Shown here: one piece after another, positions 1 to 63,171 of the stretch
How positions within the stretch are numbered: position 1 is the first letter of the stretch
How the letters are laid out: every line of letters begins with the position of its first letter
Source: Escherichia coli
GTDB lineage: Bacteria; Pseudomonadota; Gammaproteobacteria; Enterobacterales; Enterobacteriaceae
Direction: 5' to 3' (one strand)
Assembly (NCBI RefSeq): GCF_045037415.1
Contig: NZ_CP173438.1
DNA: 64,000 bases
Translations under genes and position numbers: made by a program
Notes under the pieces: model-generated
The model's input: the letters and a program-made list of their open reading frames with translations, nothing else
Databases searched by the model: none
What the model was told of the DNA's origin: nothing

Positions 1-1749
1 TGGTATCAGCAGCCGATGTATCTTCTGGCCGGTGCCGTCTGGTACAACGTCCTGACACTTATTGGTCATCTGCTGTTCCCGGTCCGCCCGCTGCAGGACA
101 ACCTGGCGCGTTGCTATGAACAACTGGCGCGTTATCTTGAGCTCAAGTCGCGCATGTTTGATCCTGATATTGAAGATGAAAGCCAGGCACCGCTGTACGA
201 TTTGGCTCTCGCCAACGGTCAGCTGATGGCGACATTGAATCAGACGAAACTCTCGCTGCTGACCCGCTTACGTGGCGATCGTGGTCAACGGGGAACGCGT
301 CGCACACTGCATTATTACTTTGTCGCGCAGGATATTCACGAGCGTGCCAGCTCTTCTCATATTCAATATCAAACATTGCGTGAACATTTTCGCCACAGCG
401 ACGTGCTGTTCCGTTTTCAGCGGCTGATGTCGATGCAGGGCCAGGCGTGCCAGCAACTGTCACGCTGTATTTTGCTGCGTCAGCCTTATCAACATGATCC
501 GCATTTTGAGCGCGCTTTTACGCATATTGATGCTGCGCTGGAGCGGATGCGCGATAACGGCGCGCCTGCTGATTTACTCAAAACACTGGGATTTTTACTG
601 AACAATTTACGTGCCATTGATGCCCAACTGGCAACAATTGAATCAGAACAGGCCCAGGCACTGCCCCATAATAATGACGAAAATGAGCTCGCTGATGACA
701 GCCCGCACGGATTGAGTGATATCTGGCTGCGTCTTAGCCGTCACTTCACGCCGGAATCCGCCCTCTTCCGTCATGCGGTAAGAATGTCGCTGGTGTTGTG
801 CTTCGGCTACGCCATCATTCAGATAACCGGAATGCATCACGGGTATTGGATCTTGCTGACAAGTTTGTTTGTCTGCCAGCCAAACTATAACGCCACGCGC
901 CACCGCCTGAAGTTAAGGATTATTGGTACGCTGGTAGGTATCGCAATTGGTATTCCTGTGCTGTGGTTTGTGCCATCATTGGAAGGGCAGCTGGTGCTGC
1001 TGGTTATTACCGGCGTGCTCTTTTTTGCCTTCCGTAACGTGCAATACGCCCATGCAACGATGTTCATCACACTTTTGGTGCTACTGTGTTTCAACTTGCT
1101 GGGTGAAGGTTTTGAAGTGGCGTTACCTCGCGTAATCGATACGCTGATTGGTTGTGCCATTGCGTGGGCGGCAGTGAGCTACATCTGGCCTGACTGGAAG
1201 TTTCGCAATCTGCCGCGAATGCTCGAACGCGCCACAGAGGCCAACTGCCGGTATCTCGATGCCATACTGGAACAATACCATCAGGGGCGTGATAACCGTC
1301 TGGCGTATCGTATTGCCCGCCGCGATGCACACAACCGTGATGCTGAACTGGCGTCGGTGGTATCAAATATGTCCAGCGAACCGAACGTTACCCCGCAAAT
1401 TCGCGAAGCCGCGTTTCGGTTGCTGTGCCTTAACCATACGTTTACCAGCTATATCTCAGCCCTCGGTGCTCACCGGGAGCAGTTAACTAATCCTGAAATT
1501 CTGGCGTTTCTTGATGACGCCGTTTGCTATGTTGATGACGCGCTACATCATCAACCTGCTGATGAAGAACGCGTCAATCAGGCATTAGCTGGCCTGAAAC
1601 AGCGGATGCAGCAACTTGAACCACGGGCAGACAGCAAAGAACCTCTGGTCGTACAACAAGTTGGGTTATTGATTGCATTACTGCCAGAGATTGGTCGTCT
1701 GCAACGCCAGATTACTCAAGTTCCGCAGGAAACTCCTGTTTCGGCGTAA
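1..1749 (+). CDS. yccS: Inner membrane protein YccS, 5'-truncated at window edge (C-terminal ~577 codons present)
   Basis: ORF 16..1749 continues in frame to position 1 with no stop; hydrophobic multi-TM sequence; K-12 synteny (convergent overlap with sxy). Confidence 0.8.
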   Translation, partial: WYQQPMYLLAGAVWYNVLTLIGHLLFPVRPLQDNLARCYEQLARYLELKSRMFDPDIEDESQAPLYDLALANGQLMATLNQTKLSLLTRLRGDRGQRGTRRTLHYYFVAQDIHERASSSHIQYQTLREHFRHSDVLFRFQRLMSMQGQACQQLSRCILLRQPYQHDPHFERAFTHIDAALERMRDNGAPADLLKTLGFLLNNLRAIDAQLATIESEQAQALPHNNDENELADDSPHGLSDIWLRLSRHFTPESALFRHAVRMSLVLCFGYAIIQITGMHHGYWILLTSLFVCQPNYNATRHRLKLRIIGTLVGIAIGIPVLWFVPSLEGQLVLLVITGVLFFAFRNVQYAHATMFITLLVLLCFNLLGEGFEVALPRVIDTLIGCAIAWAAVSYIWPDWKFRNLPRMLERATEANCRYLDAILEQYHQGRDNRLAYRIARRDAHNRDAELASVVSNMSSEPNVTPQIREAAFRLLCLNHTFTSYISALGAHREQLTNPEILAFLDDAVCYVDDALHHQPADEERVNQALAGLKQRMQQLEPRADSKEPLVVQQVGLLIALLPEIGRLQRQITQVPQETPVSA

Positions 1750-2341
1750 GAGAGTCAGCCCATTCTGCAAGCTCCTGGCGGCGTGCCACTGGGAGCGCAG
1801 CTTCATGAATGCCGATAATGGCCCCTTCAAGCATAAACAGAATCTTTTCTGTCACCAGACAGTTTTGCTGCCGCAGTCGCAACCAACACATTTTTGCCCC
1901 AAGTATACGTAACGCCCGTACATCCTTAATCCCCACCTCCCCGAGAATCGCTTCCAGATGAAAAGACATATTGGGCAAATCTTTCAGTCTTTCCCGGGTA
2001 TTGCGCGTGCTTTTCTCTTTCAGCGCTGCATCGAGAGAATATTTCGACAGACGCACCAGCTTCAGTTGATTTCGCCATAGACTTTCATCAACTCGATAGT
2101 AATTGAGGGTAACGGATCGGCCACACTTTTTATATGTCAGCCAGACAGGCGGATGTTTTACACAGTACTGTGCACTTTGCTCACAAGCCCGAAGATACAA
2201 CTCACCATCAGAAACCATCGCAAACACCGTGTCGTCAACGGTCAGGCTGTAACTACCAAACAATGATCGGTATTCAATTGTGCCCAACGTTGCCAGGTAT
2301 TCTTGTGATTTATAGATCCGCTTATAGGAGAGGCTTTTCAT
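1712..2341 (-). CDS. sxy: Competence/CRP-S regulator Sxy (TfoX), 209 aa
   Basis: 209-aa ORF, sequence recognised as Sxy; position next to sulA as in K-12. Confidence 0.88.
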   Translation of the reverse strand: MKSLSYKRIYKSQEYLATLGTIEYRSLFGSYSLTVDDTVFAMVSDGELYLRACEQSAQYCVKHPPVWLTYKKCGRSVTLNYYRVDESLWRNQLKLVRLSKYSLDAALKEKSTRNTRERLKDLPNMSFHLEAILGEVGIKDVRALRILGAKMCWLRLRQQNCLVTEKILFMLEGAIIGIHEAALPVARRQELAEWADSLTPKQEFPAELE

Positions 2342-2517
2342 AAAATTCCTTTTAAAATCATAACATAAAAGAATGATTCACATTAACGGATCCGTTAACT
2401 ACGAAAATAGGCAACTTATTCTTAAGGGGCAAGATTAATTTATGTTTTCCCGCCACCAACGACAAAATTTGCGAGGCTCTTTCCGAAAATAGGGTTGATC
2501 TTTGTCGTCACTGGATG

Positions 2518-2537
2518 TACTGTACATTCATACAGTA
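2518..2537 (+). promoter_or_regulatory. LexA SOS box upstream of sulA
   Basis: TACTGTACATTCATACAGTA matches the CTGT-N8-ACAG LexA consensus, about 25 bp upstream of the sulA start. Confidence 0.8.
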
Positions 2538-2559
2538 ACTCACAGGGGCTGGATTGATT

Positions 2560-3069
2560 ATGTACACTTCAGGCTATGCACATCGTTCTTCGTCGTTCTC
2601 ATCCGCAGCAAGTAAAATTGCGCGTGTCTCTACGGAAAACACTACAGCCGGGCTTATCAGTGAAGTTGTCTATCGCGAAGATCAGCCCATGATGACGCAA
2701 CTTCTACTGTTGCCATTGTTACAGCAACTCGGTCAGCAATCACGCTGGCAACTCTGGTTAACACCGCAACAAAAACTGAGTCGCGAATGGGTTCAGGCAT
2801 CTGGGCTACCCTTAACGAAAGTAATGCAGATTAGCCAGCTCTCCCCTTGCCACACCGTGGAGTCAATGGTTCGCGCTTTACGCACGGGCAATTACAGCGT
2901 GGTGATCGGTTGGTTGGCAGATGATTTGACTGCAGAAGAGCATGCTGAACTTGTTGATGCGGCAAATGAAGGTAACGCTATGGGGTTTATTATGCGTCCG
3001 GTAAGCGCATCCTCTCACGCAACGAGACAACTTTCCGGGCTAAAAATTCACTCTAATTTGTATCATTAA
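2560..3069 (+). CDS. sulA: SOS cell-division inhibitor SulA, 169 aa
   Basis: Translation from [11 protein letters not shown] matches SulA; track ORF starts 2 codons upstream at 2554. Confidence 0.9.
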
Positions 3070-3424
3070 GTAAATTTAGGATTAATCCTGGAACTTTTTT
3101 TATCGCCCAGCCAATGCTTTCAGTCGTGACTAATTTTCCTTGCGGAGGCTTGTCTGAAGCGGTTTCCGCGATTTTCTTCTGTAAATTGTCGCTGACAAAA
3201 AAGATTAAACGTACCTTATACAAGACTTTTTTTTCATATGCCTGACGGAGTTCACACTTGTAAGTTTTCAACTACGTTGTAGACTTTACATCGCCAGGGG
3301 TGCTCGGCATAAGCCGAAGATATCGGTAGAGTTAATATTGAGCAGATCCCCGGTGAAGGATTTAACCGTGTTATCTCGTTGGAGATATTCATGGCGTATT
3401 TTGGATGATAACGAGGCGCAAAAA

Positions 3425-4477
3425 ATGAAAAAGACAGCTATCGCGATTGCAGTGGCACTGGCTGGTTTCGCTACCGTAGCGCAGGCCGCTCCGAAAGATA
3501 ACACCTGGTACACTGGTGCTAAACTGGGCTGGTCCCAGTACCATGACACTGGTTTTATTCCTAACAATGGTCCGACCCACGAAAACCAACTGGGTGCAGG
3601 TGCTTTTGGTGGTTACCAGGTTAACCCGTATGTTGGCTTTGAAATGGGTTACGACTGGTTAGGTCGTATGCCGTACAAAGGCGACAACATCAACGGCGCA
3701 TACAAAGCTCAGGGCGTTCAGCTGACCGCTAAACTGGGTTACCCAATCACTGACGATCTGGACATCTACACTCGTCTGGGTGGTATGGTATGGCGTGCAG
3801 ACACCAAGGCTAACGTACCTGGTGGCGCATCCTTTAAAGACCACGACACCGGCGTTTCTCCGGTCTTCGCTGGCGGTGTTGAGTATGCGATCACTCCCGA
3901 AATCGCTACCCGTCTGGAATACCAGTGGACCAACAACATCGGTGATGCACACACCATCGGCACTCGTCCGGACAACGGCATGCTGAGCCTGGGTGTTTCC
4001 TACCGTTTCGGTCAGGGCGAAGCAGCTCCAGTAGTTGCTCCGGCTCCAGCTCCGGCACCGGAAGTACAGACCAAGCACTTCACTCTGAAGTCTGACGTTC
4101 TGTTCACCTTCAACAAAGCAACCCTGAAACCGGAAGGTCAGGCTGCTCTGGATCAGCTGTACAGCCAGCTGAGCAACCTGGATCCGAAAGACGGTTCCGT
4201 AGTTGTTCTGGGTTACACTGACCGCATCGGTTCTGACGCTTATAACCAGGCTCTGTCCGAGCGTCGTGCTCAGTCCGTTGTTGATTACCTGATCTCTAAA
4301 GGTATCCCGGCAGACAAAATCTCCGCACGTGGTATGGGCGAATCCAACCCGGTTACTGGCAACACCTGTGACAACGTGAAACAGCGTGCTGCACTGATCG
4401 ATTGCCTGGCTCCGGATCGTCGCGTAGAGATCGAAGTTAAAGGCATCAAAGACGTTGTAACTCAGCCGCAGGCTTAA
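3425..4477 (+). CDS. ompA: Outer membrane protein A, 350 aa, variant surface-loop allele
   Basis: Signal peptide [21 protein letters not shown], beta-barrel, APAPAPAP hinge and C-terminal OmpA/peptidoglycan-binding domain; track ORF 3338..4477 includes 29 spurious upstream codons. Confidence 0.95.
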
Positions 4478-17565: not shown

Positions 17566-18576
17566 TTAGATATGGGTAACGATTTCTTTAATCAGCGGCG
17601 GACCTTTAAAAATAAAACCAGAATAAATTTGCACCAGTGAGGCACCCGCAGCAATCTTTTCACGCGCAGCGATAACCGAGTCAATGCCGCCAACACCAAT
17701 AATCGGCAAGCGTCCGTTTAATTCCTGTGACAAGCGGCGAATAATTTCGGTGCTTTTTAACTGAAGCGGACGACCACTTAAGCCACCGGTTTGATCACAA
17801 TTTTTCATTCCCTGAACCAGAGAACGATCGAGTGTGGTATTGGTTGCAATAACGCCATCAATATTATGGCGAACTAAACTATCGGCAACCTGGATCAATT
17901 CTTCTTCAGAAAGATCCGGCGCGATCTTCACTGCGATCGGCACATATTTATGGTGCATCACTTGCAAATCATTTTGTTTATTTTTAATCGCAGTTAAGAG
18001 ATCATCCAGCGCTTCACCATATTGCAGTGTGCGTAATCCTGGGGTATTTGGCGATGAAATATTGATGGCGATATATCCCGCATAGGCATAGATTTTTTCC
18101 ATACAAATCAGATAGTCATCTTTACCCTGCTCCACCGGCGTATCTTTATTTTTGCCGATGTTAATACCCAGAACGCCGTCATAATGGGCTTTTTTTACGT
18201 TCTCTACGAGGTTATCAACGCCAAGATTATTAAAGCCCATACGGTTGATCAAACCTTCGGCATCTACCAGACGAAAGAGACGCGGCTTGTCATTACCTGG
18301 CTGGGGACGTGGCGTGACGGTACCGATCTCGATGGATCCAAATCCCATCGCGCCTAACGCGTCAATGCACTCCCCGTCTTTATCAAGACCGGCTGCCAGA
18401 CCAAGCGGATTTTTAAACGTCAGGCCCATGCAGTTAACAGGTTTCGCAGGCACTTTCTGCCGCACCAGTGCTTCAAACGGCGTTCCTGTAATACGGCGTA
18501 ATTGCTGAAAAGTAAACTCATGAGCGCGCTCTGGATCGAGCTGGAAAAGGGCTTTACGAACGAAGGGGTAGTACAT
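17566..18576 (-). CDS. pyrD: Dihydroorotate dehydrogenase (quinone) PyrD, 336 aa
   Basis: Translation from [21 protein letters not shown]; track ORF begins at an upstream TTG. Confidence 0.93.
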
Positions 18577-18662
18577 GAACTCTCCTGGATTCCCGGTGTG
18601 CAAACCGGGGGCGTATTATGTGCGAGTTCGGACCAAAAGGGAATTGACCTGCGGCAATAAAT

Positions 18663-18677
18663 AGCAAACGTTTTCTT
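18663..18677. promoter_or_regulatory. Putative PurR box upstream of pyrD
   Basis: AGCAAACGTTTTCTT resembles the PurR operator consensus as recalled; pyrD is a known PurR target. Confidence 0.5.
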
Positions 18678-18812
18678 ATTGCGCTTTTTTTATGCTTTTT
18701 TTGGCTTTTCTTCCTCAGATAAATCATTTCGACTCGCGGACGCCCTCTGTCAGACTGACCGAATTGTTATCAATGTTAACAAAACAAGAACAATTGGTTA
18801 TAAGGAGAGAGT

Positions 18813-19388
18813 ATGCGTGTCATCACCCTGGCGGGTAGTCCTCGATTTCCTTCTCGCTCCAGCTCCTTGCTGGAATATGCGCGGGAAAAACTAAATGGCC
18901 TGGATGTAGAGGTTTATCACTGGAATTTGCAAAACTTCGTCCCGGAAGATCTGCTTTATGCTCGTTTCGATAGTCCGGCACTCAAGACCTTCACCGAACA
19001 GCTGCAACAGGCCGATGGGCTGATTGTCGCCACGCCTGTGTATAAAGCCGCCTATTCCGGTGCACTGAAAACCCTGCTCGACCTGCTGCCAGAACGTGCG
19101 TTGCAAGGCAAAGTGGTGCTGCCGCTGGCGACAGGCGGCACCGTGGCCCATCTGCTGGCGGTCGATTATGCCCTTAAGCCAGTTTTAAGTACGCTGAAAG
19201 CCCAGGAGATCCTGCACGGCGTGTTTGCCGATGACTCGCAAGTAATTGATTACCAACACAAACCCCAGTTCACGCCAAATCTGCAAACTCGTCTTGATAC
19301 CGCGCTAGAAACTTTCTGGCAGGCGTTGCACCGCCGCGATGTTCAGGTTCCTGACCTACTGTCTTTGCGAGGTAATGCCCATGCGTAA
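18813..19388 (+). CDS. ssuE: NADPH-dependent FMN reductase SsuE, 191 aa
   Basis: 191-aa ORF recognised as SsuE; first gene of ssuEADCB. Confidence 0.9.
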   Translation: MRVITLAGSPRFPSRSSSLLEYAREKLNGLDVEVYHWNLQNFVPEDLLYARFDSPALKTFTEQLQQADGLIVATPVYKAAYSGALKTLLDLLPERALQGKVVLPLATGGTVAHLLAVDYALKPVLSTLKAQEILHGVFADDSQVIDYQHKPQFTPNLQTRLDTALETFWQALHRRDVQVPDLLSLRGNAHA

Positions 19389-25939: not shown

Positions 25940-25969
25940 GCTCCTGTACGAGGACGCTACTGCGCACAT

Positions 25970-28783: not shown

Positions 28784-29129
28784 TCCTTTCTGTCAAGTTA
28801 TCTGTTTGTTAAGTCAAGCAATCTATTTGCAACCCTGCCATAACGATCATCCTGTTACGGAATATTACACTGCAACATTTACGCACAAAAAATAATCTGC
28901 ATTCTTATTGCGGATTAGTTTTTTCTTAGCTGATAGCACAATTTTTATACGATTTTTTGGCATTCTGGATGTCTGAAAGAAGATTTTGTGCCCGGTCGAT
29001 AAAGTTTCCATCAGAAACAAAATTTCCGTTTAGTTAATTTAAATATAAGGAAATCATATAAATAGATAAAAATTGCTGTAAATATCATCACGCCTCTATG
29101 GAAATATGACGGTGTTCACAAAGTTCCTT

Positions 29130-29343: not shown

Positions 29344-30432
29344 ATGATGAAGCGCAATATTCTGGCAGTGATCGTCCCTGCTCTGTTAGTAGCAGGTACT
29401 GCAAACGCTGCAGAAATCTATAACAAAGATGGCAACAAAGTAGATCTGTACGGTAAAGCTGTCGGTCTGCATTATTTCTCCAAGGGTAACGGTGAAGACA
29501 GTTACGGTGGCAATGGCGACATGACCTATGCCCGTCTTGGTTTTAAAGGGGAAACTCAAATCAATTCCGATCTGACCGGTTATGGTCAGTGGGAATATAA
29601 CTTCCAGGGTAACAACTCTGAAGGCGCTGACGCTCAAACTGGTAACAAAACGCGTCTGGCATTCGCGGGTCTTAAATACGCTGACGTTGGTTCTTTCGAT
29701 TACGGCCGTAACTACGGTGTGGTTTATGATGCACTGGGTTACACCGATATGCTGCCAGAATTTGGTGGTGATACTGCATACAGCGATGACTTCTTCGTTG
29801 GTCGTGTTGGCGGCGTTGCTACCTATCGTAACTCCAACTTCTTTGGTCTGGTTGATGGTCTGAACTTTGCTGTTCAGTACCTGGGTAAAAACGAGCGTGA
29901 CACTGCACGCCGCTCTAACGGCGACGGTGTTGGCGGTTCTATCAGCTACGAATACGAAGGCTTTGGTATCGTTGGTGCTTATGGTGCCGCTGACCGTACC
30001 AACCTGCAGGAAGAGTCTCCCCTTGGCAAAGGCAAAAAAGCTGAACAGTGGGCTACTGGTCTGAAGTATGACGCGAACAACATCTACCTGGCAGCGAACT
30101 ACGGTGAAACCCGTAACGCTACGCCGCTCACTAACAAATTTACAAACACCAGCGGCTTCGCCAACAAAACGCAAGACGTTCTGTTAGTTGCGCAATACCA
30201 GTTCGATTTCGGTCTGCGTCCGTCCATCGCTTACACTAAATCTAAAGCGAAAGACGTAGACGGTATCGGTGATGTTGATCTGGTGAACTACTTTGAAGTG
30301 GGCGCAACCTACTACTTCAACAAAAACATGTCCACCTATGTTGACTACATCATCAACCAGATCGATTCTGACAACAAGTTGGGCGTAGGTTCCGACGATA
30401 CCGTTGCTGTGGGTATCGTTTACCAGTTCTAA
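29344..30432 (+). CDS. ompF: Outer membrane porin OmpF, 362 aa
   Basis: Signal peptide [22 protein letters not shown] and trimeric porin sequence ending VYQF. Confidence 0.95.
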
Positions 30433-30458: not shown

Positions 30459-30488
30459 AAAAACAGGACTTTGGTCCTGTTTTTTTTA
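30459..30488 (+). terminator. Rho-independent terminator after ompF
   Basis: AAAAAACAGGACTTTGGTCCTGTTTTTTTT. Confidence 0.8.
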
Positions 30489-30616: not shown

Positions 30617-31807
30617 ATGTTTGAGAACATTACCGCCGCTCCTGCCGACCCGATTCTGGGCCTGGCCGATCTGTTTCGTGCCGATGAACGTCCCGGCAAA
30701 ATTAACCTCGGGATTGGTGTCTATAAAGATGAGACGGGTAAAACCCCGGTACTGACCAGCGTGAAAAAGGCTGAACAGTATCTGCTCGAAAATGAAACCA
30801 CCAAAAATTACCTCGGCATTGACGGCATCCCTGAATTTGGTCGCTGCACTCAGGAACTGCTGTTTGGTAAAGGTAGCGCCCTGATCAATGACAAACGTGC
30901 TCGCACGGCACAGACTCCGGGTGGCACTGGCGCACTACGCGTGGCTGCCGATTTCCTGGCAAAAAATACCAGCGTTAAGCGTGTGTGGGTGAGCAACCCA
31001 AGCTGGCCGAACCATAAGAGCGTCTTTAACTCTGCAGGTCTGGAAGTTCGTGAATACGCTTATTATGATGCGGAAAATCACACTCTTGACTTCGATGCAC
31101 TGATTAACAGCCTGAACGAAGCCCAGGCTGGCGACGTAGTGCTGTTCCATGGCTGCTGCCATAACCCAACCGGCATCGACCCTACGCTGGAACAATGGCA
31201 GACACTGGCACAACTCTCCGTTGAGAAAGGCTGGTTACCGCTGTTTGACTTCGCTTACCAGGGTTTTGCTCGGGGTCTGGAAGAAGATGCTGAAGGACTG
31301 CGCGCTTTCGCGGCTCTGCATAAGGAGCTGATTGTTGCCAGTTCCTACTCTAAAAACTTTGGCCTGTACAACGAGCGTGTTGGCGCTTGTACTCTGGTTG
31401 CTGCTGACAGTGAAACTGTTGAACGTGCATTCAGCCAAATGAAAGCGGCGATTCGTGCTAACTACTCTAACCCACCAGCACACGGCGCTTCTGTTGTTGC
31501 CACCATCCTGAGCAACGATGCGTTACGTGCGATTTGGGAACAAGAACTGACTGATATGCGCCAGCGTATTCAGCGTATGCGTCAGTTGTTCGTCAATACG
31601 CTGCAGGAAAAAGGCGCAAATCGCGACTTCAGCTTTATCATCAAACAGAACGGCATGTTCTCCTTCAGTGGCCTGACAAAAGAACAAGTGCTGCGTCTGC
31701 GCGAAGAGTTTGGCGTATATGCTGTTGCTTCTGGTCGCGTAAACGTGGCCGGGATGACACCAGATAACATGGCACCGCTGTGCGAAGCGATTGTGGCAGT
31801 GCTGTAA
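30617..31807 (+). CDS. aspC: Aspartate aminotransferase AspC, 396 aa
   Basis: 396-aa ORF recognised as AspC ([36 protein letters not shown]). Confidence 0.95.
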
Positions 31808-49569: not shown

Positions 49570-51834
49570 CTACCCGTTATCCACTGGCACGCCAAACCAC
49601 TGATGATACCAACGAGGTAAAATTTGCTCTCTGAGGCTGCTAATCCACCAGCCTTGCGCTGAAAAATTGACCGTTATTTGCCCCTGATGTGGAGTATCAA
49701 GCCACTTATAACCCTGTTGATGATAGCGATATTTAACTTTGCTTGAGGGCAGTCGCCATGCGTTATAGCGCGATGCCGATGCGAGTGCCACTTTTCCATT
49801 CACTCGCTGAATTAATGGCAACGATGATGAGGTATTACTGCCATGGTGAGGTACCTGAAGTAATGTTGCCTGCATTTGCTGCCAGTAACGGCTTAGCATC
49901 TTTTGTTCAGCGGGGGCTTCAATATCACCGGTTAGAAGAATGCTATTCGTCCCGTCATCAATCTTAACCACACAGGAATGGTTATTTCCTTTATCGTTGC
50001 TACCTTGTAAAGGCCAGTGCGCGCTGAAACGCAATCCTTGCCATTGCCACGCTTCGCCACGCACACAGGGCTGATGATGTTCCCAGTTTAACGGACTTCG
50101 GATCCATAACATCGGCCATGTGTGCAATATTGAGTCCAGCCCTCCCCGGTGATCCAGATGTTCATGACTCAAAATAACGCCTTCCGGTTCAAGATTATGC
50201 CAGTGGAGCCAGGGGATAATCAGTTGTTGCCCACTATCCCCTTCGGGCCAGGCCAGTCCCGTGTCATAGAGAATCGCTTTGCCGTTTCGCGCAATGACCA
50301 TTGCCAGCCCCTGCCCGACATCAAGTATGTACACTTGCCACTCGTCAGGTCGAGGTTTTTGCCACAGCGGCAAGCACATCAGCAAGCCTACAGCCACACA
50401 CATTGCTGGCAACGTTCGCCAGGCGTTTAATCGCCATACCACCAGTAAGAACCATGGGGAAAATGTTAGCCATTGCCAACGTTCAGCAATGTTGATCCAC
50501 CCTTCCGGCAAACTCTTTAACCCCCAGAAAAGTAAAGCCAAAGACCGGTCGGCAAGAAACCATAACCCTTGTTCCAGAATAAACGGCCCGCTTAAATGCA
50601 CAACCATCGCGGCGAGAATCAACGGAACCGTGATAAATGTCACCAGGGGAATTGCAAAAAGATTTGCAATAAACGAGGTCAGACTAATGCCATGAAATAT
50701 GACAATTTGCACGGGCATAAGCAGGAGGGTGATTCCCAGTTGCAGATGGATGAGGGAAACAACCGCGCGCAATACCGGCGGCAGCTGCCACTCCGGACAG
50801 GGAAACCACTGATACCAAAAAATCAGTGCCGCGACCGCAGCGGCAGAAAGCCATAAACTTTGCGAGAGAATGGCAACAGGATCCATCAGCAAAATTGCCG
50901 CCAGACAACATATCCATACATCCCAGCCACTCCATTGTCGTCCACTTAACTTAAGCATTCCCCAAATGGCAAGCGCCACCACGGTACGCAATGCAGGAGG
51001 TTGCATTCCCGTAAGCCAGGCATAAAAAGCAGCACAGCAGATTCCACCAATTAATGGCATTTGCCAGTGGAGCCAGCACCCAGGCAGAAAAACTTGCCCA
51101 CCGCGAATGAGTCCTGCAGCCAGCAACGCCGCAAAAGCGATGTGCAATCCTGATATCGCCATTAAATGCGCCGTTCCAGTATCACGCATGATATTTTTGA
51201 TTTCTTTGGGGACGGATAACCGTTCCCCCATACCTAATCCAAGAATAACCGCGTTCCACATATAGGGTTGCAGCGTTGTTTGTAGTGACGCCAGATACTG
51301 TGCACGCAGGCTACAATTCGGTTCAATGACACTTGCCTGCAGAAAACGGCCGGTGAGCGGTTGATGCTGGGCAATGGCATAACGCTGGCTATCAAAGCCG
51401 CCATCATTAAGTTGACCATGAACTGCACGAACTTTGAGTTTCATTGACCATACTTGTCCGGCACAAACCGCTTGCGGAAGATATTCGCCATACAGTACGA
51501 GGCCTGGCGCAGGGAATATACGTCGACCTTGTAGATGAGTAATTTGACCGTAATGAGTGGTCATGCCGTCAGTAGCAATGATCTCAACAATTGCATCCTG
51601 CGTCGCGCCAGTTAAGGTTTCTCCTGCCCACAAAATTTGCTTTGCTGCTAATATGCCCCAAACGAAAAACAGCAACGTCAGCGCGATATAACGGACGGTT
51701 TTAACAGGGATAAATGCCAGTACACAGGCGAAGAGAGTCAGAAACGCAAGGGTTACTGTCCCTGGCAATTGGGGCAAAATCAGCAACGGAAAAATTCCGC
51801 AAATTATGCATACGCCGACTGTCGTTATTTTCAT
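49570..51834 (-). CDS. ycaI: ComEC/Rec2-family inner membrane protein YcaI, 754 aa
   Basis: Translation from MKITTVGVCIICGIF; polytopic with C-terminal metallo-beta-lactamase-like region; track ORF extends 10 codons upstream. Confidence 0.85.
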   Translation of the reverse strand: MKITTVGVCIICGIFPLLILPQLPGTVTLAFLTLFACVLAFIPVKTVRYIALTLLFFVWGILAAKQILWAGETLTGATQDAIVEIIATDGMTTHYGQITHLQGRRIFPAPGLVLYGEYLPQAVCAGQVWSMKLKVRAVHGQLNDGGFDSQRYAIAQHQPLTGRFLQASVIEPNCSLRAQYLASLQTTLQPYMWNAVILGLGMGERLSVPKEIKNIMRDTGTAHLMAISGLHIAFAALLAAGLIRGGQVFLPGCWLHWQMPLIGGICCAAFYAWLTGMQPPALRTVVALAIWGMLKLSGRQWSGWDVWICCLAAILLMDPVAILSQSLWLSAAAVAALIFWYQWFPCPEWQLPPVLRAVVSLIHLQLGITLLLMPVQIVIFHGISLTSFIANLFAIPLVTFITVPLILAAMVVHLSGPFILEQGLWFLADRSLALLFWGLKSLPEGWINIAERWQWLTFSPWFLLVVWRLNAWRTLPAMCVAVGLLMCLPLWQKPRPDEWQVYILDVGQGLAMVIARNGKAILYDTGLAWPEGDSGQQLIIPWLHWHNLEPEGVILSHEHLDHRGGLDSILHTWPMLWIRSPLNWEHHQPCVRGEAWQWQGLRFSAHWPLQGSNDKGNNHSCVVKIDDGTNSILLTGDIEAPAEQKMLSRYWQQMQATLLQVPHHGSNTSSSLPLIQRVNGKVALASASRYNAWRLPSSKVKYRYHQQGYKWLDTPHQGQITVNFSAQGWWISSLREQILPRWYHQWFGVPVDNG

Positions 51835-56049: not shown

Positions 56050-56439
56050 TTACTCTTTTTTCTCCGTATCTGCATCGGGTTCATCAGCAAATAGCTTGCC
56101 CTGCATCCGATCCAGTTCTTCTTTTCTTACCCGCTTAACCACGCTGTAGACCCACTGAAGCGAAACACCAAATTTGCGGGCCAGTTCGTGGTGGTTGCGT
56201 CCGTTAAACTCCCTGAAGATTTCCCGGTCGCGCTGACTGACCTTCCATACCATGCCCATCGGGAAATAAACGTTTTGCCCGCCCCAGACCTGCATCATTC
56301 GGTTCGCGACGGCCTGACCAATCTGGTCGGCAACTTCGGGCTCAATATCAATAATCTCGCGAACGGTCTCAGAGGTATGCTGTGCCAGTTCCACCAGGAG
56401 TTCCGGCCCCTTACTTCGAAACTGATTCAGGTCGCTCAT
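56050..56439 (-). CDS. mor: Mor/C-family transcriptional activator (Mu middle-operon regulator homologue), 129 aa
   Basis: Same length as Mu Mor; motifs GGQNVYFP and REFNGRNHHELARKFGVSLQWVYSVVKRVR parallel the Mor HTH region as recalled. Confidence 0.75.
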   Translation of the reverse strand: MSDLNQFRSKGPELLVELAQHTSETVREIIDIEPEVADQIGQAVANRMMQVWGGQNVYFPMGMVWKVSQRDREIFREFNGRNHHELARKFGVSLQWVYSVVKRVRKEELDRMQGKLFADEPDADTEKKE

Positions 56440-56860
56440 GTTTGACTCCCGCAGCTCTGCGCTGCCACTTCTTCAGTTTCTCAATAACACTGCTTGCCTG
56501 TTCAGTACTGAGCCAGCGCAGGGCGCTGATGCCCGTTTCCCGCTTGATCCACCTCGCTAATGCATTTTCTGAACGGTCACGAACAATGCCGGCAGCAGCC
56601 ATTTCAAGCCATAGCGCACGAATTTTCCTGGACTGCGGATGGTTATCAAGCGGTAAACCGGAGCTGGCTTTTCTGGCTGGTTTAACGCGAAAGCCTTTCT
56701 TTTTCATGGATTCCAGCACGCAGTTTAGTTGTGTGGTATCCATTCCTTTGGTTGAGGCTTTACCGGTCAGCCCCTGTAACATCTGGCGGTAGGTGTCTTC
56801 ATCCATACCCAGTTCATTACGGGCAATATGGATAAGCTGTATCAGGCGTTTTTTCTGCAT
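56411..56860 (-). CDS. GemA-like protein (Mu gp16 / DUF1018 family), 149 aa
   Basis: N-terminal LIQLIHIARNELGMDEDTYRQMLQGLTGKASTKGM resembles Mu GemA/gp16 as recalled; sits immediately upstream of mor as in Mu. Confidence 0.55.
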   Translation of the reverse strand: MQKKRLIQLIHIARNELGMDEDTYRQMLQGLTGKASTKGMDTTQLNCVLESMKKKGFRVKPARKASSGLPLDNHPQSRKIRALWLEMAAAGIVRDRSENALARWIKRETGISALRWLSTEQASSVIEKLKKWQRRAAGVKHERPESVSK

Positions 56861-56861
56861 A

Positions 56862-57068
56862 TCATCTCCTTTTTTTCAGTCTGTCGGCAACAATGTCGGT
56901 TGCAGCTGGCAGGGTGACTGGCCAGAACAACATGACGGCGGTCATGTACAGGATGTAATGCGCGGTGTCGTAGTGCCTGCCATAGCCCAGGGAACGATGA
57001 AGTCTTGCGCTGCATGATCCTGCGTACATATACCAGAAAAGAAAACAGACAATGGTTTCAGTAGTCAT
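56862..57068 (-). CDS. Small hydrophobic protein, about 68 aa (start at internal Met of track ORF 56862..57224)
   Basis: MTTETIVCFLFWYMYAGSCSA... predicted TM segments; packed between neighbouring genes. Confidence 0.3.
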   Translation of the reverse strand: MTTETIVCFLFWYMYAGSCSARLHRSLGYGRHYDTAHYILYMTAVMLFWPVTLPAATDIVADRLKKRR

Positions 57069-57288
57069 TCTGAATACCTCCCCATTCGATATGAATATTA
57101 CGGGCAGCAATGACAGGGTCGTTATTCCACCATGCACCTGACATGTATTTTTCAACCTGTTCGCGTCCGGCAATAACACCAATTGTGATCCCCGGCCTGA
57201 CGTTCTTAAAAAAGGCGCGGGCAAAAAGGTATCTGGCAGATATTCGGCAGGCTTTTAATTTCCGGCTTTTACCTGATAGCGTAATCAT
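57058..57288 (-). CDS. Hypothetical phage protein, 76 aa
   Basis: Start overlaps the stop of the upstream gene (coupled arrangement); no recognisable motif. Confidence 0.35.
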   Translation of the reverse strand: MITLSGKSRKLKACRISARYLFARAFFKNVRPGITIGVIAGREQVEKYMSGAWWNNDPVIAARNIHIEWGGIQNDY

Positions 57289-57968
57289 CTGGCCTCCAGT
57301 TTCTGTTGTTCCTGCCCACTGACCGGGCGGTGCAGTCTGACGTTCTGCCCTTCACGAAACCCCGCATAGCGCGAGGCGTCGCCATTGCGGCTTCTTCCCG
57401 GTTTACGCGCCCTGGTGGTTTGCGTCTGCGGGTATTTATGTTCCAGCCACTGCTGCATCAGTTCACGCTCATCATCGGTCAGGGCAAAGGACTGTATTTC
57501 ACTGATAACGGCCAGCACCCAGCCTTCGGCAAACTGGTCTCCACGGCTGGTGCGGGTGGCGGTTTTTATTCTTTTGTTCTGTGCACTGATATACTGCTGA
57601 CGCGCCTTTTTCAGCTGACGGGCCAGCACTTCCCAGGTGTATGCAGCCAGTGCCGCACGTTCCCGGTTGCCGTAGAACCCCACAGACGGATGCGTGCCGG
57701 GGTGAATGATGGAGTTAACACCAAATACCTCGCGGATGATGTTCATCAGGCCCAGCATGTAGCGCGGTGGACGGAGACTGCCTGTCGGCCAGTAGTGACT
57801 GATGGTTTCATCAATATCACTCATAGCAATGTCGGAATGTGTGATGCCGTGAACATCCATCAGTTTACGGGCTCGGCGCAGTGCCAGAGCGGCCTCGTGC
57901 GGGTTGCCGGATGCGGCCAGCGCCAGCAACTTTTTCAGTTTCTCAATGTGTTTATTCTGGTCTGTCAT
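57285..57968 (-). CDS. Hypothetical phage protein with DUF2786-like N-terminal motif, about 227 aa
   Basis: KHIEKLKKLLALAASGNPHEAALALRRARKLMDVHGI motif; start placed at the second Met to avoid a 40-nt overlap (track ORF 57285..58004). Confidence 0.45.
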   Translation of the reverse strand: MTDQNKHIEKLKKLLALAASGNPHEAALALRRARKLMDVHGITHSDIAMSDIDETISHYWPTGSLRPPRYMLGLMNIIREVFGVNSIIHPGTHPSVGFYGNRERAALAAYTWEVLARQLKKARQQYISAQNKRIKTATRTSRGDQFAEGWVLAVISEIQSFALTDDERELMQQWLEHKYPQTQTTRARKPGRSRNGDASRYAGFREGQNVRLHRPVSGQEQQKLEAR

Positions 57969-58180
57969 TGTTCTGTATCTCCGGTATTTTTCTGCCGTTT
58001 CCATGCCCGGACAGCGTCGGACAGCTCTTTCAGGCTGTATGCTGCTTTAAGCTTTTCCCATAACCACTGTGTTGTTATGTGCATCAGCAGGGCAGCCAGG
58101 GCTGCCCCCGCACTGAGGCATGTCGCCAGGCCAGTAAGAATCAGTGTCCATGCGGTGATTTCCCTGAGTATGTCAGCCAT
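57965..58180 (-). CDS. Small membrane protein, 71 aa
   Basis: Single predicted TM helix (WTLILTGLATCLSAGAALAALLM) followed by a charged tail. Confidence 0.4.
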   Translation of the reverse strand: MADILREITAWTLILTGLATCLSAGAALAALLMHITTQWLWEKLKAAYSLKELSDAVRAWKRQKNTGDTEQ

Positions 58181-58194
58181 TGAATGCCTCCCGG

Positions 58195-58491
58195 TTACTC
58201 GTTCGTGTAAATCACGCCCAGTCGTGCAGCCAGACGTTCCAGTTTTTTCTGTTTGTGGAAGTCAATCAGCCGGTCCATCCCCTGAAGGCGCAGTTGCTCT
58301 GTCATGATTTCCACGTCTGCCAGCTCTGCCGCGAGGTCACTTTCGCTGCCCTGTCCGTTCAGGTTGCGGGCGGCACTGGCCGCCAGTTCAGCGGCCTCTT
58401 CTGCCAGTTTCAGGGCCTGTGCGTCCGGCCCGAAACGCTGCAGGGCCAGACGGTAGAGGGCGGTGCGGGTGAGTTCGGTGTTTCGTGTCAT
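58195..58491 (-). CDS. MazG-like nucleotide pyrophosphohydrolase-domain protein, 98 aa
   Basis: EEAAELAA...AAELADVEIM pattern typical of the small all-alpha MazG/HisE fold. Confidence 0.5.
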   Translation of the reverse strand: MTRNTELTRTALYRLALQRFGPDAQALKLAEEAAELAASAARNLNGQGSESDLAAELADVEIMTEQLRLQGMDRLIDFHKQKKLERLAARLGVIYTNE

Positions 58492-58500
58492 GCCGCGCCC

Positions 58501-58773
58501 TCAGTGCTTCCGGCTGACGGTGATGTGCAGGCCGCCTTCTGCAGTGGTTTCCATCCGGTACGGCACCTCATGCTCTGCCGTGTGGGTGAGTGTGTTCATC
58601 AGTACCTGCAGGGCAGCCTCCTTTCCGTTGGTCGCCACAATGGCCTGTGTGGCCATGCTGATTAGCGCCGTCAGGACGTGCTTCACATCGGTGAGGTCGC
58701 GGCATTCACACTCGTTGACATAGTGTTCAACAAGGGTTCGGGTGCGCTGTCGTGCTTCCTGTGGGGTAATCAT
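58501..58773 (-). CDS. Hypothetical phage protein, 90 aa
   Basis: ORF in operon context, coupled to the downstream gene; no motif recognised. Confidence 0.4.
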   Translation of the reverse strand: MITPQEARQRTRTLVEHYVNECECRDLTDVKHVLTALISMATQAIVATNGKEAALQVLMNTLTHTAEHEVPYRMETTAEGGLHITVSRKH

Positions 58774-58964
58774 TGCGAGTCCTCCCTGTCAGGGCGGGAG
58801 AATTCCATGACGGGCACGTCTGCCGAAAAATGCTGGCTGCAGTACGGGCAGACCAGGGTGACGCGTACCGCAGGGATGTGGTATTTACCGGACATCACGG
58901 CGATGGCGCTGTGAAAACGCAGGGCTGTTATATCCCTCTCGCACTGAATACATTTAAATATCAT
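58770..58964 (-). CDS. Small zinc-ribbon protein, 64 aa
   Basis: CxxC (CIQC) ... CxxC (CPYC) pairs. Confidence 0.45.
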   Translation of the reverse strand: MIFKCIQCERDITALRFHSAIAVMSGKYHIPAVRVTLVCPYCSQHFSADVPVMEFSRPDREDSQ

Positions 58965-59061
58965 GATTTAATTCTCCTCTGTTTCCGGCGTGCAGAAGCC
59001 CGCGGCGCTGACGTCGGAATAAAAAAGAAAATGTTTTTATTAAATAATTAACGTGGTGTGT

Positions 59062-59592
59062 TTACTGCACATCCTGCTCAAAAGGAATTATTGAAAAATC
59101 CTCAATGTCGCTTTTAATGGAAATACCGGGAATATTTTTCACGGCCTCTTTTTCATTCAGGATAGCGTCTTTATTTATTTCCTCTTTTACACGAATAAAG
59201 CGCTCAAGCCCCAGACGTCTCAGTAATTCAATAACATTATCCGCCCCACGGATACTGACTGATGGCGGACGGTTTCGCCACTGCACCTCGCCGGTGGTGA
59301 GGTTAGCGAACTTCACCTTCCCGTTGCCGGTCAGTTCATCACGGTGTGCCTCACACCATGTCTGAATACCGGACTGCAGTTCGGCCATGCGTTTTTTCAG
59401 GCTCTCGGTGAGCGGGGCATAACGTGCGGTGATATCGCCAATGGCGTCATTCATTTCTGTTTCAGCCCTGACCAGTTCACGTTGTGCGTCACCGAGTAGT
59501 CTGATTCCCTCAATGACCTCTTCACGTGTCCCCGGCACCCAGAGTGCTGCTGCGGCCTTGATACGTTTTGCACCTTTTGTACTTTTTGCCAT
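59062..59592 (-). CDS. gam: Gam-like host-nuclease inhibitor / DNA-end binding protein (Mu Gam family), 176 aa
   Basis: MAKSTKGAKRIKAAAALWVP...TEMNDAIGDIT...WCEAHRDELT...VSIRGADNVIELLRRLGLERFIRVKEEINKDAIL...FSIIPFEQD closely parallels Mu Gam as recalled. Confidence 0.85.
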   Translation of the reverse strand: MAKSTKGAKRIKAAAALWVPGTREEVIEGIRLLGDAQRELVRAETEMNDAIGDITARYAPLTESLKKRMAELQSGIQTWCEAHRDELTGNGKVKFANLTTGEVQWRNRPPSVSIRGADNVIELLRRLGLERFIRVKEEINKDAILNEKEAVKNIPGISIKSDIEDFSIIPFEQDVQ

Positions 59593-59619
59593 TTTTTATG
59601 ATTTCTCCAGTTGTGCTGA

Positions 59620-59889
59620 TTACCACAAAGATTCCGGCCACACGACGCGACAGCCGTGCAGTTCGAAAACGCCCTGACGGAAATATCCCCTGTGGTCATG
59701 TCCGGTATACAGATAACAGGCCTTTCCCTGCTCAAGCATGCGCATGCAATGCGCACTCCGGGAAACGCGGATGACAGGTTTGTTACCCCTGATGGTGATG
59801 CTTTGTACATCCGTGTTCGTCGCCTTAAGCGCCATAATGGCTGACTGCACTTTGCTGATTTGCTGGTTGATACCTGTGGTGGATTTCAT
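59620..59889 (-). CDS. Hypothetical phage protein, 89 aa
   Basis: ORF between the MuB-like gene and gam, where Mu carries kil; no motif recognised. Confidence 0.4.
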   Translation of the reverse strand: MKSTTGINQQISKVQSAIMALKATNTDVQSITIRGNKPVIRVSRSAHCMRMLEQGKACYLYTGHDHRGYFRQGVFELHGCRVVWPESLW

Positions 59890-59891
59890 TA

Positions 59892-61097
59892 TTAAACCCC
59901 TTTGACAACGTCAGCGTTGACCTGTGGAACCCCGATTTCAGCGGCCAGATTCATGGCGGCTATTACCAGGTTACTGACGGCCAGCGGATACAGCAGGCTG
60001 ACCATATTTTTACGGTGACTTCCCGGATTGCTCAGGCGGGCACGTATGGCATCCACTGCACCGGCGTCCATAATGTCCGTCAGCTGTTTACCGGCCCGTT
60101 GCAGTTTGAACGTCAGAAATTCTTCAAGGTTATTGTCCAGAGGCAGAAGTTCGACCACCTCACAGCGCTGAACGACTTCACGGACTTCCATATTGCGTTC
60201 AGACAGTTTTGTCGCCAGTTCCGGCTGGCCAATCAGCACGATGGACAGCAGTTTTTTGAAACCGGACTCCAGCTCAAAAAAGCGTTTGAGGTGTTTCAGT
60301 GTCGGAATGGGCAGACTGTGGGCCTCCTCAATCACCAGAACGTGGCTGAACCCCGCCTGGCTGCTGTCTTTCAGGACGCGATGCAACTGGCGAAAACGGG
60401 CGTCCTGACTGCGTCTGATGCTTTCCAGTGGTGCGATGGTACTGATAATGGCTTCGGCAATAGCTGCTGCCTTCAGGGTTTTCCCTTTCACATCGTTGTC
60501 TTCCATAGCGATGATGTATGGCTCGATAACAATTACCGGCGCATTCTCGCGGTTGATACGTTCAGTCAGGTCGCGGCGCAGCGTGGATTTACCCGCACCG
60601 GACTCACCGATGACGGCCATAAACCCACCATGACGGGCTGTCTGGTACAGCGCCTCACGCACGTAGCGAATGTCCGGGGTGGTGAACACATCATCAGAAC
60701 CCTGCATGGCTTCGTCGGCGAACGGGTCACGGAAAAGACCAAACGCTTTTTTGGTTGCTGGAAATAACACCTGTTTTTTGAGTAACATATTCTCTTCCTC
60801 ACTGAGGCTCGTTTTATCTGTGGTACCCGCTGTACGGGGCGTGGCCGCGCCCTGTACAGCATCAAAACTCTTCGTTGTATCAATCCCCTGACTTTCCAGC
60901 CAGGACGCAAGACGCCGGCGCACTTCTCCGGGGCTGGTGCGGGGCCACGCGTTATGATTCACAATCTGGGCCAGCGTGGCCTCAGAAACATCGACAGCTC
61001 TCGCCACCACCGCCTGTGGAATACGGGCCTCTTTCAGTTGCTGCTTCAGTACCAGCATGTTTCCCTCCTCAGTTGCCGTTAACAATGCTGATAACAC
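59892..61097 (-). CDS. MuB-like transposition ATPase (N-terminal HTH plus AAA+), up to 401 aa
   Basis: Walker A GESGAGKST, N-terminal Xre-like HTH (AVVARAVDVSEATLAQIV); immediately downstream of the transposase; start uncertain (the Met at 61058 would remove the overlap with the transposase gene). Confidence 0.8.
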   Translation of the reverse strand: MLSALLTATEEGNMLVLKQQLKEARIPQAVVARAVDVSEATLAQIVNHNAWPRTSPGEVRRRLASWLESQGIDTTKSFDAVQGAATPRTAGTTDKTSLSEEENMLLKKQVLFPATKKAFGLFRDPFADEAMQGSDDVFTTPDIRYVREALYQTARHGGFMAVIGESGAGKSTLRRDLTERINRENAPVIVIEPYIIAMEDNDVKGKTLKAAAIAEAIISTIAPLESIRRSQDARFRQLHRVLKDSSQAGFSHVLVIEEAHSLPIPTLKHLKRFFELESGFKKLLSIVLIGQPELATKLSERNMEVREVVQRCEVVELLPLDNNLEEFLTFKLQRAGKQLTDIMDAGAVDAIRARLSNPGSHRKNMVSLLYPLAVSNLVIAAMNLAAEIGVPQVNADVVKGV

Positions 61098-62838
61098 TGC
61101 TGCGGGCCGGTGTGGTCAGCGTGGCCATGACTTCATCCAGTGCGGCTTCCGGTACGCCGTCCGGGTACTGTGCCGTTAACTGGCGGTAATGTTCCGGCGT
61201 CCAGGTAAGGCCGTCGGCGCTGAACTTATCGCGCAGGGCTTTCGCGGCCTCCACATGAGTCATGGGACGTTGTTCAGTGCGCGGCCCGCGTACGTCAGAG
61301 GCCTGACCACGCTTCGGCATATAGGCCGGAAGTGTGGTGTCGTCGATATGTTTATACGGGTCAAGCCGCCCGCCGAACGGCAGCGCCTTCGCCTTGCGTG
61401 CGGCGGCTGCATCTGCGGCGTTGTCTGTACCGGTAACCAGCGCTTCGGTTTCTTTTGCCGCCATCTGTGCCGGGGTTTCCGGCAGGGCTTTGTAACTTTC
61501 GCCAAATACCGCCGCGCCTTCAGCAAAGCCAAACTCGTTCTTTCTGACCTCTTCGACCAGGAAGAACGTCTCGTGGCCGTCCTCACCGGTCAGAACCACC
61601 TGTGCCACATCGCTGCGCCATGGGTTACGGGTAATCATCAGTTTTTCACCAACCAGTACGCCCGGTACCGTTGATACGTCAAATTCAGTGCCCCGGAACG
61701 AGACACGAAGTTTTGGCGTGACTTTGCGGAGTTCTGGTGCCGCCACAGCCAGTTCACGACATACCTCAACGGAAGGCGCTTTTTTCAGCTGCTCAGCAGT
61801 AATCTTCAGCCAGATATCCGTGCGGGTTTTACCGTGGCGGCTGTGAACAGCCGTGGCGTTAAAGTGGCTGCGCCATTTCGCGGCCAGCGCGTTGAGTTCT
61901 TCCAGACTGTGAACCGGCCGGAACTTCAGACCCGGCTCCAGCTTGCGTTCGATAATGTCACGCGCCTTTTCCACCTGTCCGGTGGCGCGGGCGTTATGCG
62001 GCTTGTGCGCTATCAGGTCGATGCCCAGTGAGCGGCACATGTTTTTCGTCATACCCGCGGTGTTTGCCGAGCCGGGGTCGAGATAGAGTATTTTCGGCAC
62101 GCCGTGCAGCACGTCTGCGCCGCCACGCTCCTGCATGGCGTTGATAAGCACAGAACACAGGTTCTCACCTGATTCCGCGCCCGTCACATACTCAACGTAA
62201 ATCCAGCCGCTGGCATGGTCGGTAATCTCGTAACTCCACACGCGGTCACTGGCGATACGGGCAAGGTTAGCGGGCTTGTTCTTGTAGAACTTCGCGCTGT
62301 CCATCACCTGCAGCCCTTTATGTCCATTGCTCAGGTAGTAAAGCGTGCAGAGTGAGGCGTCAATCTGCCAGACATGATTGGGATGCAGACTGGCCACTTC
62401 GGTATGTGGTGCAGGGGCATCCAGTTGTTCCGGGTGCAGGCCATAGTTACGCAGAGCACGGCTGATGGCATCTTCAGACAACGGGAAAAACTCACTGGTG
62501 GTTTCATCTGTTCTGCCTGCGGTGATAAAGCCGTTAGCCCGCAGGGTTTCCACTGCATCTGCGATGGAATAGAGACGCTTACCGTTCTTGCGGGTGGCCT
62601 CACGCAGTGTGGCAGATATCAGCGCGGCTTCGTCGCGGGTCAGGGCGCTGCGCCCGGCATCGGCGCGTTTTTTGCGTTTATCAGTCACAGATACCTCCTT
62701 CAGCCTGCGCAGCAGAGTGGCGCGGGACATGCCAAGTTCAGCACAGGCAGCGTCGTATATTGCACCGCGTTTACCATGCCCCGCGTCACGTGCCGCGCGG
62801 GCTGTTTCAACCAGTTTTTCAGTCAGTGCCGGGGTCAT
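61069..62838 (-). CDS. DDE (rve/Mu-type) transposase, 589 aa
   Basis: N-terminal HTH; catalytic core with VWQIDAS ... YLDPGSANT ... ATGQVE arrangement. Confidence 0.85.
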   Translation of the reverse strand: MTPALTEKLVETARAARDAGHGKRGAIYDAACAELGMSRATLLRRLKEVSVTDKRKKRADAGRSALTRDEAALISATLREATRKNGKRLYSIADAVETLRANGFITAGRTDETTSEFFPLSEDAISRALRNYGLHPEQLDAPAPHTEVASLHPNHVWQIDASLCTLYYLSNGHKGLQVMDSAKFYKNKPANLARIASDRVWSYEITDHASGWIYVEYVTGAESGENLCSVLINAMQERGGADVLHGVPKILYLDPGSANTAGMTKNMCRSLGIDLIAHKPHNARATGQVEKARDIIERKLEPGLKFRPVHSLEELNALAAKWRSHFNATAVHSRHGKTRTDIWLKITAEQLKKAPSVEVCRELAVAAPELRKVTPKLRVSFRGTEFDVSTVPGVLVGEKLMITRNPWRSDVAQVVLTGEDGHETFFLVEEVRKNEFGFAEGAAVFGESYKALPETPAQMAAKETEALVTGTDNAADAAAARKAKALPFGGRLDPYKHIDDTTLPAYMPKRGQASDVRGPRTEQRPMTHVEAAKALRDKFSADGLTWTPEHYRQLTAQYPDGVPEAALDEVMATLTTPARSSVISIVNGN

Positions 62839-62853
62839 AGCTTGTCTTCCCTG

Positions 62854-63171
62854 TTATCCGATTCTGGCGGCAATTTTTCTGGCGAGGTCGCACAGTGTTT
62901 CGCCATCGCAGGTTTTCACCACGGTATTTACCGGTTGCGGTGCAACTACCGGGCGTAATGCTGACTGATTCTGCAGACGTCTTATCTGCTGCATCAGCAT
63001 CACCTCCATCGTCAGTACAAACGGGTGCGTCTCCTGTGCGGGTACGCAGATTTCACCGGAAGGGGTCACCACGCGGAAACCCTGCACCATCTCCGGCAGC
63101 AGATTACACAGTGCGTGCCCCAGTGCCTCCGGGCTGTCCATCAGGGTATTTTGTGTGTTATTCGTATTCAT
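62854..63171 (-). CDS. Hypothetical phage protein, 105 aa
   Basis: ORF immediately upstream of the transposase; start overlaps the stop of the upstream gene. Confidence 0.4.
   Translation of the reverse strand: MNTNNTQNTLMDSPEALGHALCNLLPEMVQGFRVVTPSGEICVPAQETHPFVLTMEVMLMQQIRRLQNQSALRPVVAPQPVNTVVKTCDGETLCDLARKIAARIG

Follow-up and report, generated by a model that had tools for sequence, protein, structure and literature searches.

The window, a 64,000-base stretch of an Escherichia coli chromosome, carries an ompF gene lying between asnS (which ends at 28741) and aspC, an arrangement shared with K-12 MG1655 and the ST131 strain EC958; the gene is annotated as ompF in EC958, AZ146, and K-12 alike. 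Its product scored 788 bits with the NCBIfam equivalog model NF007446 ("porin OmpF", cutoff 583) and stayed under the cutoffs of the paralogue profiles, PhoE (474 bits, cutoff 599) and OmpC (462 bits, cutoff 484). The Pfam family PF00267 (Porin_1) matched the protein end to end with 461 bits. Taken together, the equivalog score, the locus order, and the Porin_1 match identify the gene as ompF and, judging from the sequence, it is the chromosomal ompF of a strain of the pandemic E. coli clone ST131, which belongs to phylogroup B2. The features of the locus and of the rest of the window are collected in Table 1.

Table 1. Coordinates of ompF, its variable sites and flanking signals, and other features of the window. 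Loops of OmpF are given in residues of the precursor.
Feature	Position	Strand	Remarks
ompA	3425-4477	+	350 aa
pyrD/ssuE junction	17566-19388, about 18604-18812		cell-surface difference from K-12
Four promoter SNPs vs K-12	29132, 29143, 29146, 29150	+	in or adjoining distal OmpR-binding box F1 (presumed placement)
ompF coding sequence	29344-30432	+	362 codons plus stop; ST131-type allele plus one private SNP
ompF signal peptide, codons 1-22	29344-29409	+	mature PDB chains begin at query residue 23; same as K-12
Codon 52	29497-29499	+	GAC (D) vs K-12 AAC (N): N30D, L1; also in ST131 EC958
L5 hypervariable patch	30009-30033	+	9 of the 25 differences from K-12 in 25 nt; A202E, Q203S, N207K
Codon 262	30127-30129	+	CTC (L) vs ATC (I): I240L, small beta-hairpin of L6; GATC lost
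Codon 306	30259-30261	+	GAC (D) vs GAA (E): E284D, tip of L7; in ST131, absent from IHE3034
ompF intrinsic terminator	30464-30487	+	CAGGAC-TTTG-GTCCTG then T8; read from sequence
aspC	30617-31807		
ycaI/comEC	49570-51834	-	ComEC-family YcaI
Mu-like prophage segment	about 56050-64000		adjoins ycaL
OmpF loop L1	47-61		
OmpF loop L2	89-101		
OmpF loop L3	125-153		
OmpF loop L4	181-194		
OmpF loop L5	218-231		
OmpF loop L6	258-274		
OmpF loop L7	306-308		
OmpF loop L8	339-352		

An AlphaFold model of the protein, built from an alignment of 68 full-length diverse porins obtained in a representative search, had a pLDDT of 92.4 and showed the strand and loop pattern of the 16-strand, eight-loop porin layout. 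It could be superposed on OmpF crystal structures with TM 0.99 and RMSD of 0.7-0.8 Å over 340 residues, in agreement with the OmpF fold, in which L3 is folded into the lumen. The loop boundaries were derived from this model and checked against the anchor residues of a published OmpF simulation study, namely K25 in L1, R235 at L6, G285 in L7, and L3 spanning residues 102-135 (PMC12152960). In the same study Gly285 is the RMSF peak of L7, and the constriction zone is formed by R42, R82, R132, D113, E117, and D121 (PMC12152960). Regulation by OmpR/EnvZ and MicF and the function of a trimeric diffusion channel are predicted for this OmpF.

The ompF promoter is OmpR-dependent and has a weak -35 element. 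Upstream of ompF, 17 of 602 bases differ from K-12, including the one at 28870 and four, between 29132 and 29150, that according to the published ompF promoter map presumably lie within the distal OmpR-binding box F1 or directly beside it. The 121-nt promoter haplotype is at least 99% identical in 650 records, being thus a haplotype of the lineage and not a private one. Altered expression resulting from the F1-box haplotype was considered and set aside, as published expression data for ST131 report no ST131-specific difference in the OmpF level (PMC7177473). A consensus scan listed neither the ompF promoter nor the ompF terminator; our guess is that the latter was missed because flanking A/T pairs extend its stem into the T run. 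The 184-nt spacer between ompF and aspC differs from that of K-12 in one base.

Comparison with ompF of K-12 MG1655 (b0929) revealed 25 nucleotide differences and exactly six amino acid replacements (precursor/mature numbering): N52D/N30D, A224E/A202E, Q225S/Q203S, N229K/N207K, I262L/I240L, and E306D/E284D; mature numbering is used below. The same six are the sole mismatches in HMMER alignments to the OmpF chains of PDB entries 3hw9, 4gcp, and 1opf. The original prediction had named four motifs in which the protein departs from K-12 OmpF, KDVDGIGD among them. The replacements found in the pairwise alignment correspond to these motifs one-to-one, so that its comparison with K-12 was accurate; the exact identity to K-12 OmpF that would have spoken against a difference is excluded by the 25 nucleotides and six residues. 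With the K-12/B protein (P02931; PDB 2OMF, 1OPF, 3HW9) the window OmpF shares the gene, the locus, the length of 362 aa, and 356 of 362 residues, including the entire signal peptide, barrel, turns, L2, L3, L4, and L8, and it differs from it by the six loop residues, 17 synonymous differences (NG86), and the 17 upstream SNPs.

According to the structural model, all six replacements are located in extracellular loops, with three in L5 and a single one each in L1, L6, and L7, as had been expected of substitutions presumed to be surface-exposed. Relative to K-12, the barrel and the periplasmic turns are free of replacements, as are L2 (the latching loop) and L3 (the constriction loop), which agrees with the initial description of the gene as otherwise canonical. 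Loop residues make up 119 of the 340 residues of the mature protein; the chance of all six replacements falling in loops is 0.35^6 = 0.002, or 0.015 when the L5 trio is taken as one event. The clustering of differences in L5 (nine in 25 nt) has a Poisson probability of about 1e-8 per 25-nt segment, or about 5e-7 when corrected. Through the substitutions, the net charge of the loops becomes one lower than in K-12. All six positions are highly variable across the 68 porin-family representatives, with position 240 preferring hydrophobic or aromatic residues. As the differences from K-12 are confined to residues 30, 202, 203, 207, 240, and 284, the charged residues of the constriction are intact, and permeability should be unchanged compared to K-12 OmpF. 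Lesions linked to carbapenem or cephalosporin resistance, such as truncations, IS insertions, or mutations of the pore lining, are absent from the allele; the gene being intact and free of such lesions, the channel should behave like that of K-12.

The whole window differs from the ST131 strain Ecol_AZ146 by three bases, with no indels. The best matches of ompF were EC958, JJ1886, SE15, and many O25b:H4-ST131 isolates, each with one mismatch, and no identical ompF was found among 5,426 complete genomes. Compared to EC958, a single base is changed, A to C at 30127, which yields I240L. In other words, the window ompF agrees at 1088 of 1089 nucleotides, and its product at 361 of 362 residues, with the ST131 OmpF allele (WP_000977908.1; EC958, JJ1886, SE15, Ecol_AZ146), and the promoter haplotype and flanks are also those of this allele, the A to C change being the only difference. 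This standard ST131 allele, 99.9% identical to the window ompF, occurs in hundreds of complete genomes; 562 records contain ompF at least 99% identical to that of the window. The ST131 protein is found on about 999 contigs, and the K-12 protein on at least 1000. Since only one base separates the window ompF from that of EC958, five of the six substitutions (N30D, A202E, Q203S, N207K, and E284D) can be assigned to the allele inherited by ST131.

Parts of this allele are distributed differently among E. coli strains. The 61-nt L5 segment is present exactly in 549 genomes and with 95-99% identity in a further 487; those sampled from the latter band had one mismatch each and included 'clone D i2' and an APEC O2:K1:H7 strain. 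Exactly or nearly so, the L5 patch is carried by about 1,045 of 5,426 genomes (~19%), including the B2 strain IHE3034, which has EESSLGK at the L5 position. The L5 block is the form that this known hypervariable region takes in B2, whereas the last third of the gene (3' end), with E284D, is peculiar to ST131. In ten alleles sampled across the identity range, most amino acid polymorphism was found in L1, L5, and L6; the allele furthest from the others also had differences in L4 and a few changes in L2 and the strands. This much more divergent ompF is carried by about 9% of complete E. coli genomes, 482 records falling in the band of 80-90% identity. One example is NZ_CP086623.1 (RIVM_C037794), with ~90% nucleotide and 93% amino acid identity, a one-residue insertion in L4, a six-residue deletion in L6, and changed L1 and L5; beside this ~90%-identity allele, that of the window appears as a mild variant. 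In strain 97-3250, ompF is a frameshifted pseudogene.

Loop-restricted mosaic variation of OmpF and OmpA and its link to phage receptors are already known. Porin genes of E. coli evolve mosaically, with five major OmpF groups and hypervariable regions in the extracellular loops; HVR4 and HVR5 coincide with L5 and L6 and with the binding sites of phage K20, and the ST131 strain SE15 was among the strains analysed (bioRxiv 10.1101/2021.09.21.461324). Binding of K20 is blocked by substitutions in loops 5, 6, or 7 that leave the channel unaffected, monoclonal antibody epitopes of OmpF have been placed on L1, L4, and L5, and the loops of OmpF and OmpC vary under both phage and immune pressure. Among 58 E. 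coli OmpF sequences, 30 variable positions were described, forming ten variants that largely follow phylogroup. The variation in the window is like that of the published hypervariable regions in being confined to loops and arranged in blocks (bioRxiv 10.1101/2021.09.21.461324; PMC12175518), and, as far as these articles cite them, like that of Petersen 2007 and Chen 2006. Nothing substantive sets the window allele apart from the published OmpF groups, and only the singleton I240L stands outside them.

Pairwise Nei-Gojobori (NG86) estimates between the window and K-12 gave whole-gene dN/dS of 0.135 for ompF, 0.033 for aspC, and 0.021 for asnS, with dS of 0.071, 0.067, and 0.044, respectively. 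Within ompF, the barrel and turns had dN = 0 and dS = 0.048, the loops dN = 0.030 and dS = 0.136, and dS of the exposed loops reached 0.22. Loop dN/dS was about 0.2 (pairwise range 0.10-0.31) and thus below 1. In nine alleles, loops contained 12 of 13 replacement-polymorphic codons but 19 of 36 synonymous-polymorphic codons (Fisher p = 0.017). A foreign origin of the whole ompF gene was rejected because its dS is like that of aspC next to it. L5 does not appear to resemble the loop sequences of K-12 OmpC and PhoE, so gene conversion from ompC or phoE is improbable.

These values could be produced by neutral drift between phylogroups A and B2, with neither diversifying or balancing selection nor recombination: a loop dN/dS of 0.2 fits relaxed purifying selection, the closeness of dS in ompF and aspC makes whole-gene foreign import unneeded, and the six positions are unconstrained across the family. 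However, uniform drift would predict neither the three to five times higher dS of exposed loops compared to the barrel (0.22 vs 0.048) nor the cluster in L5 at P of about 5e-7; moreover, blocks are shared discordantly among alleles, and published analyses report both mosaic recombination and positive selection in ompF. We consider drift of this kind unlikely. The matrix of polymorphic sites in nine alleles shows three blocks: one at L1 in strain 504239, one at L5 in the B2 strains, and one at the 3' end that is specific to ST131. In this small sample of nine alleles, the four-gamete test found four of 378 site pairs incompatible; hence the case for recombination rests mainly on the clustering of blocks and on published work. 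As to positive selection, pairwise dN/dS alone would be no demonstration of it, since much the same would be seen if relaxed constraint on loops acted together with recombination. The rise of dS together with dN, at a dN/dS well below 1, is what one expects of old recombining polymorphism, and so the data point to old loop haplotypes moved by recombination rather than to a recent adaptive burst.

The mechanism may be pictured as follows. Intragenic recombination would shuffle old loop variants of ompF, and the variation would be kept by agents that dock on the loops, such as OmpF-specific phages (K20 with loops 5-7), antibodies (L1, L4, and L5), colicins, and toxins of contact-dependent inhibition; perhaps frequency-dependent selection maintains the loop haplotypes. 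Such changes would alter surface recognition and not permeability, being presumably neutral for permeation. Overall, a chromosomal ST131 ompF with loop variation caused by recombination, encoding a predicted trimeric 16-stranded general-diffusion porin, is very probably the best explanation of the locus.

The original prediction had gone further and, from ompF together with ompA, suggested a diversification of the outer surface in this lineage. The ompA product is longer than that of K-12 (346 aa), and the gene has 95.0% nucleotide identity to its K-12 counterpart; the 13 aligned differences include substitutions in outer loops 1-3, a four-residue insertion, and two changes in the C-terminal domain. 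Similar outer-loop variation is found in the ompA alleles described as ompA1 and ompA2 (Power 2006; Liao 2022, PMC9560509). The loops of both ompF and ompA do differ from K-12, and to that extent the suggestion holds; as a statement about the lineage it is overstated, because both genes are shared old alleles. Five of the six OmpF changes belong to the fixed ST131 allele, and many genomes have an ompA that matches the allele of the window with 100% identity, while 729 records reach at least 99%. I240L alone is particular to this genome; being a conservative change, it may have no effect or may be an artefact.

The strongest form of the suggestion would regard the substitutions, I240L included, as recent lineage-specific adaptive diversification, an escape from OmpF-dependent phage, colicin, or antibody. 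It is in line with the positions of the changes, which occur in loops known for phage binding or antigenicity (L5-L7 for K20; L1, L4, and L5 for monoclonal antibodies), I240L being in L6, and with the loop-variant ompA in the same window; an ompA2-type allele has been reported to lower phage sensitivity (PMC9560509, citing Power 2006). However, five of the six changes are fixed in ST131 and the L5 block is present in ~19% of complete genomes, so these changes predate the lineage. Raised loop dS with dN/dS of ~0.2 argues for old polymorphism, many genomes share the very same ompA allele, and I240L is a conservative change at a position preferring hydrophobic residues, which makes it probably a packing residue and not an exposed epitope. 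Recent adaptive escape is therefore very unlikely, and shuffling of old loop haplotypes remains the preferred reading.

Several other differences were observed in the window. The fimbrial operon elfADCG-ycbUVF, which in K-12 occupies 7.2 kb between ssuE and pyrD, is absent, and pyrD and ssuE are adjacent; as a consequence, the distance from ompA to ompF is about 8 kb shorter than in K-12. The end of the window is occupied by a Mu-like prophage segment, recognized by the annotation of the collinear Ecol_AZ146, with genes for the Mor activator, gp16, Gam, a DDE transposase, and an ExeA-like ATPase.

The remaining change, I240L, is so far limited to the genome studied. The exact protein was found on one 5.3-Mb contig (WP_404999083.1/XKM74082.1) among ~15 billion proteins, and the 81-mer around the substitution occurred in none of the 5,426 complete genomes. 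In the porin family, the corresponding column contains F (17), I (14), Y (14), L (5), and V (2) among 68 sequences. This preference for hydrophobic or aromatic residues suggests that the side chain is packed within the L6 hairpin and does not form an exposed epitope.

Nanopore consensus errors concentrate at methylation motifs, and the substitution hits the adenine of a GATC site, which EC958, AZ146, and K-12 all retain. It could thus be a sequencing or base-calling artefact at a Dam-methylated site, the true allele being the ST131 consensus. The coincidence with the motif is in favor of an artefact, considering that A or T of GATC account for only about 0.9% of window bases; so is the methylation of more than 99% of GATC adenines in ST131 EC958 (PMC4659465), and so is the restriction of the variant to one contig, with none in the 5,426 complete genomes.

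The two other private substitutions of the window bear on the same question. At position 25968, A replaces the C present in every close relative checked; this site precedes the ATG of pncB by 2 nt and so falls between the start codon and the ribosome-binding region. The SNP at 50326 causes M503I in YcaI, and the 81-mer around it was found in none of the 5,426 genomes. By our estimate, a total of three private changes in 64 kb, with no synonymous one among them, would be rather high for a terminal branch of ST131, which again favors errors. On the other hand, neither the pncB nor the ycaI SNP is located in any of the known ST131 methylation motifs (GATC, CANCATC, GAGACC, AACN4CTTT, RTACN4GTG, ATGCAT, and CCWGG), the absence of indels in 64 kb argues for a well-polished assembly, and an isoleucine-to-leucine change is also what would be expected of a harmless real mutation. 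An artefact is accordingly possible but doubtful, and a real neutral variant has roughly even chances. It is improbable that the change is adaptive in any way, and hardly credible that it is a real, recently selected receptor-escape mutation reshaping the L5/L6 surface toward phage, colicin, or antibody; if that were true, the escape could have followed exposure of the strain to phage or to immunity in a patient. Most likely, I240L is a neutral private polymorphism or a sequencing error, and not an adaptive change.

In sum, the ompF gene of the window represents an inherited and widely shared ST131/B2 loop polymorphism with one trivial or doubtful singleton. The result places the window on an ST131 chromosome and is otherwise of little import beyond bookkeeping. 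I240L serves as a caution that single-genome variants at GATC sites need to be checked against reads. For work with ST131, K-12 OmpF is an inexact surrogate at L1, L5, and L7 when OmpF-dependent phages, antibodies, or vaccines are chosen.
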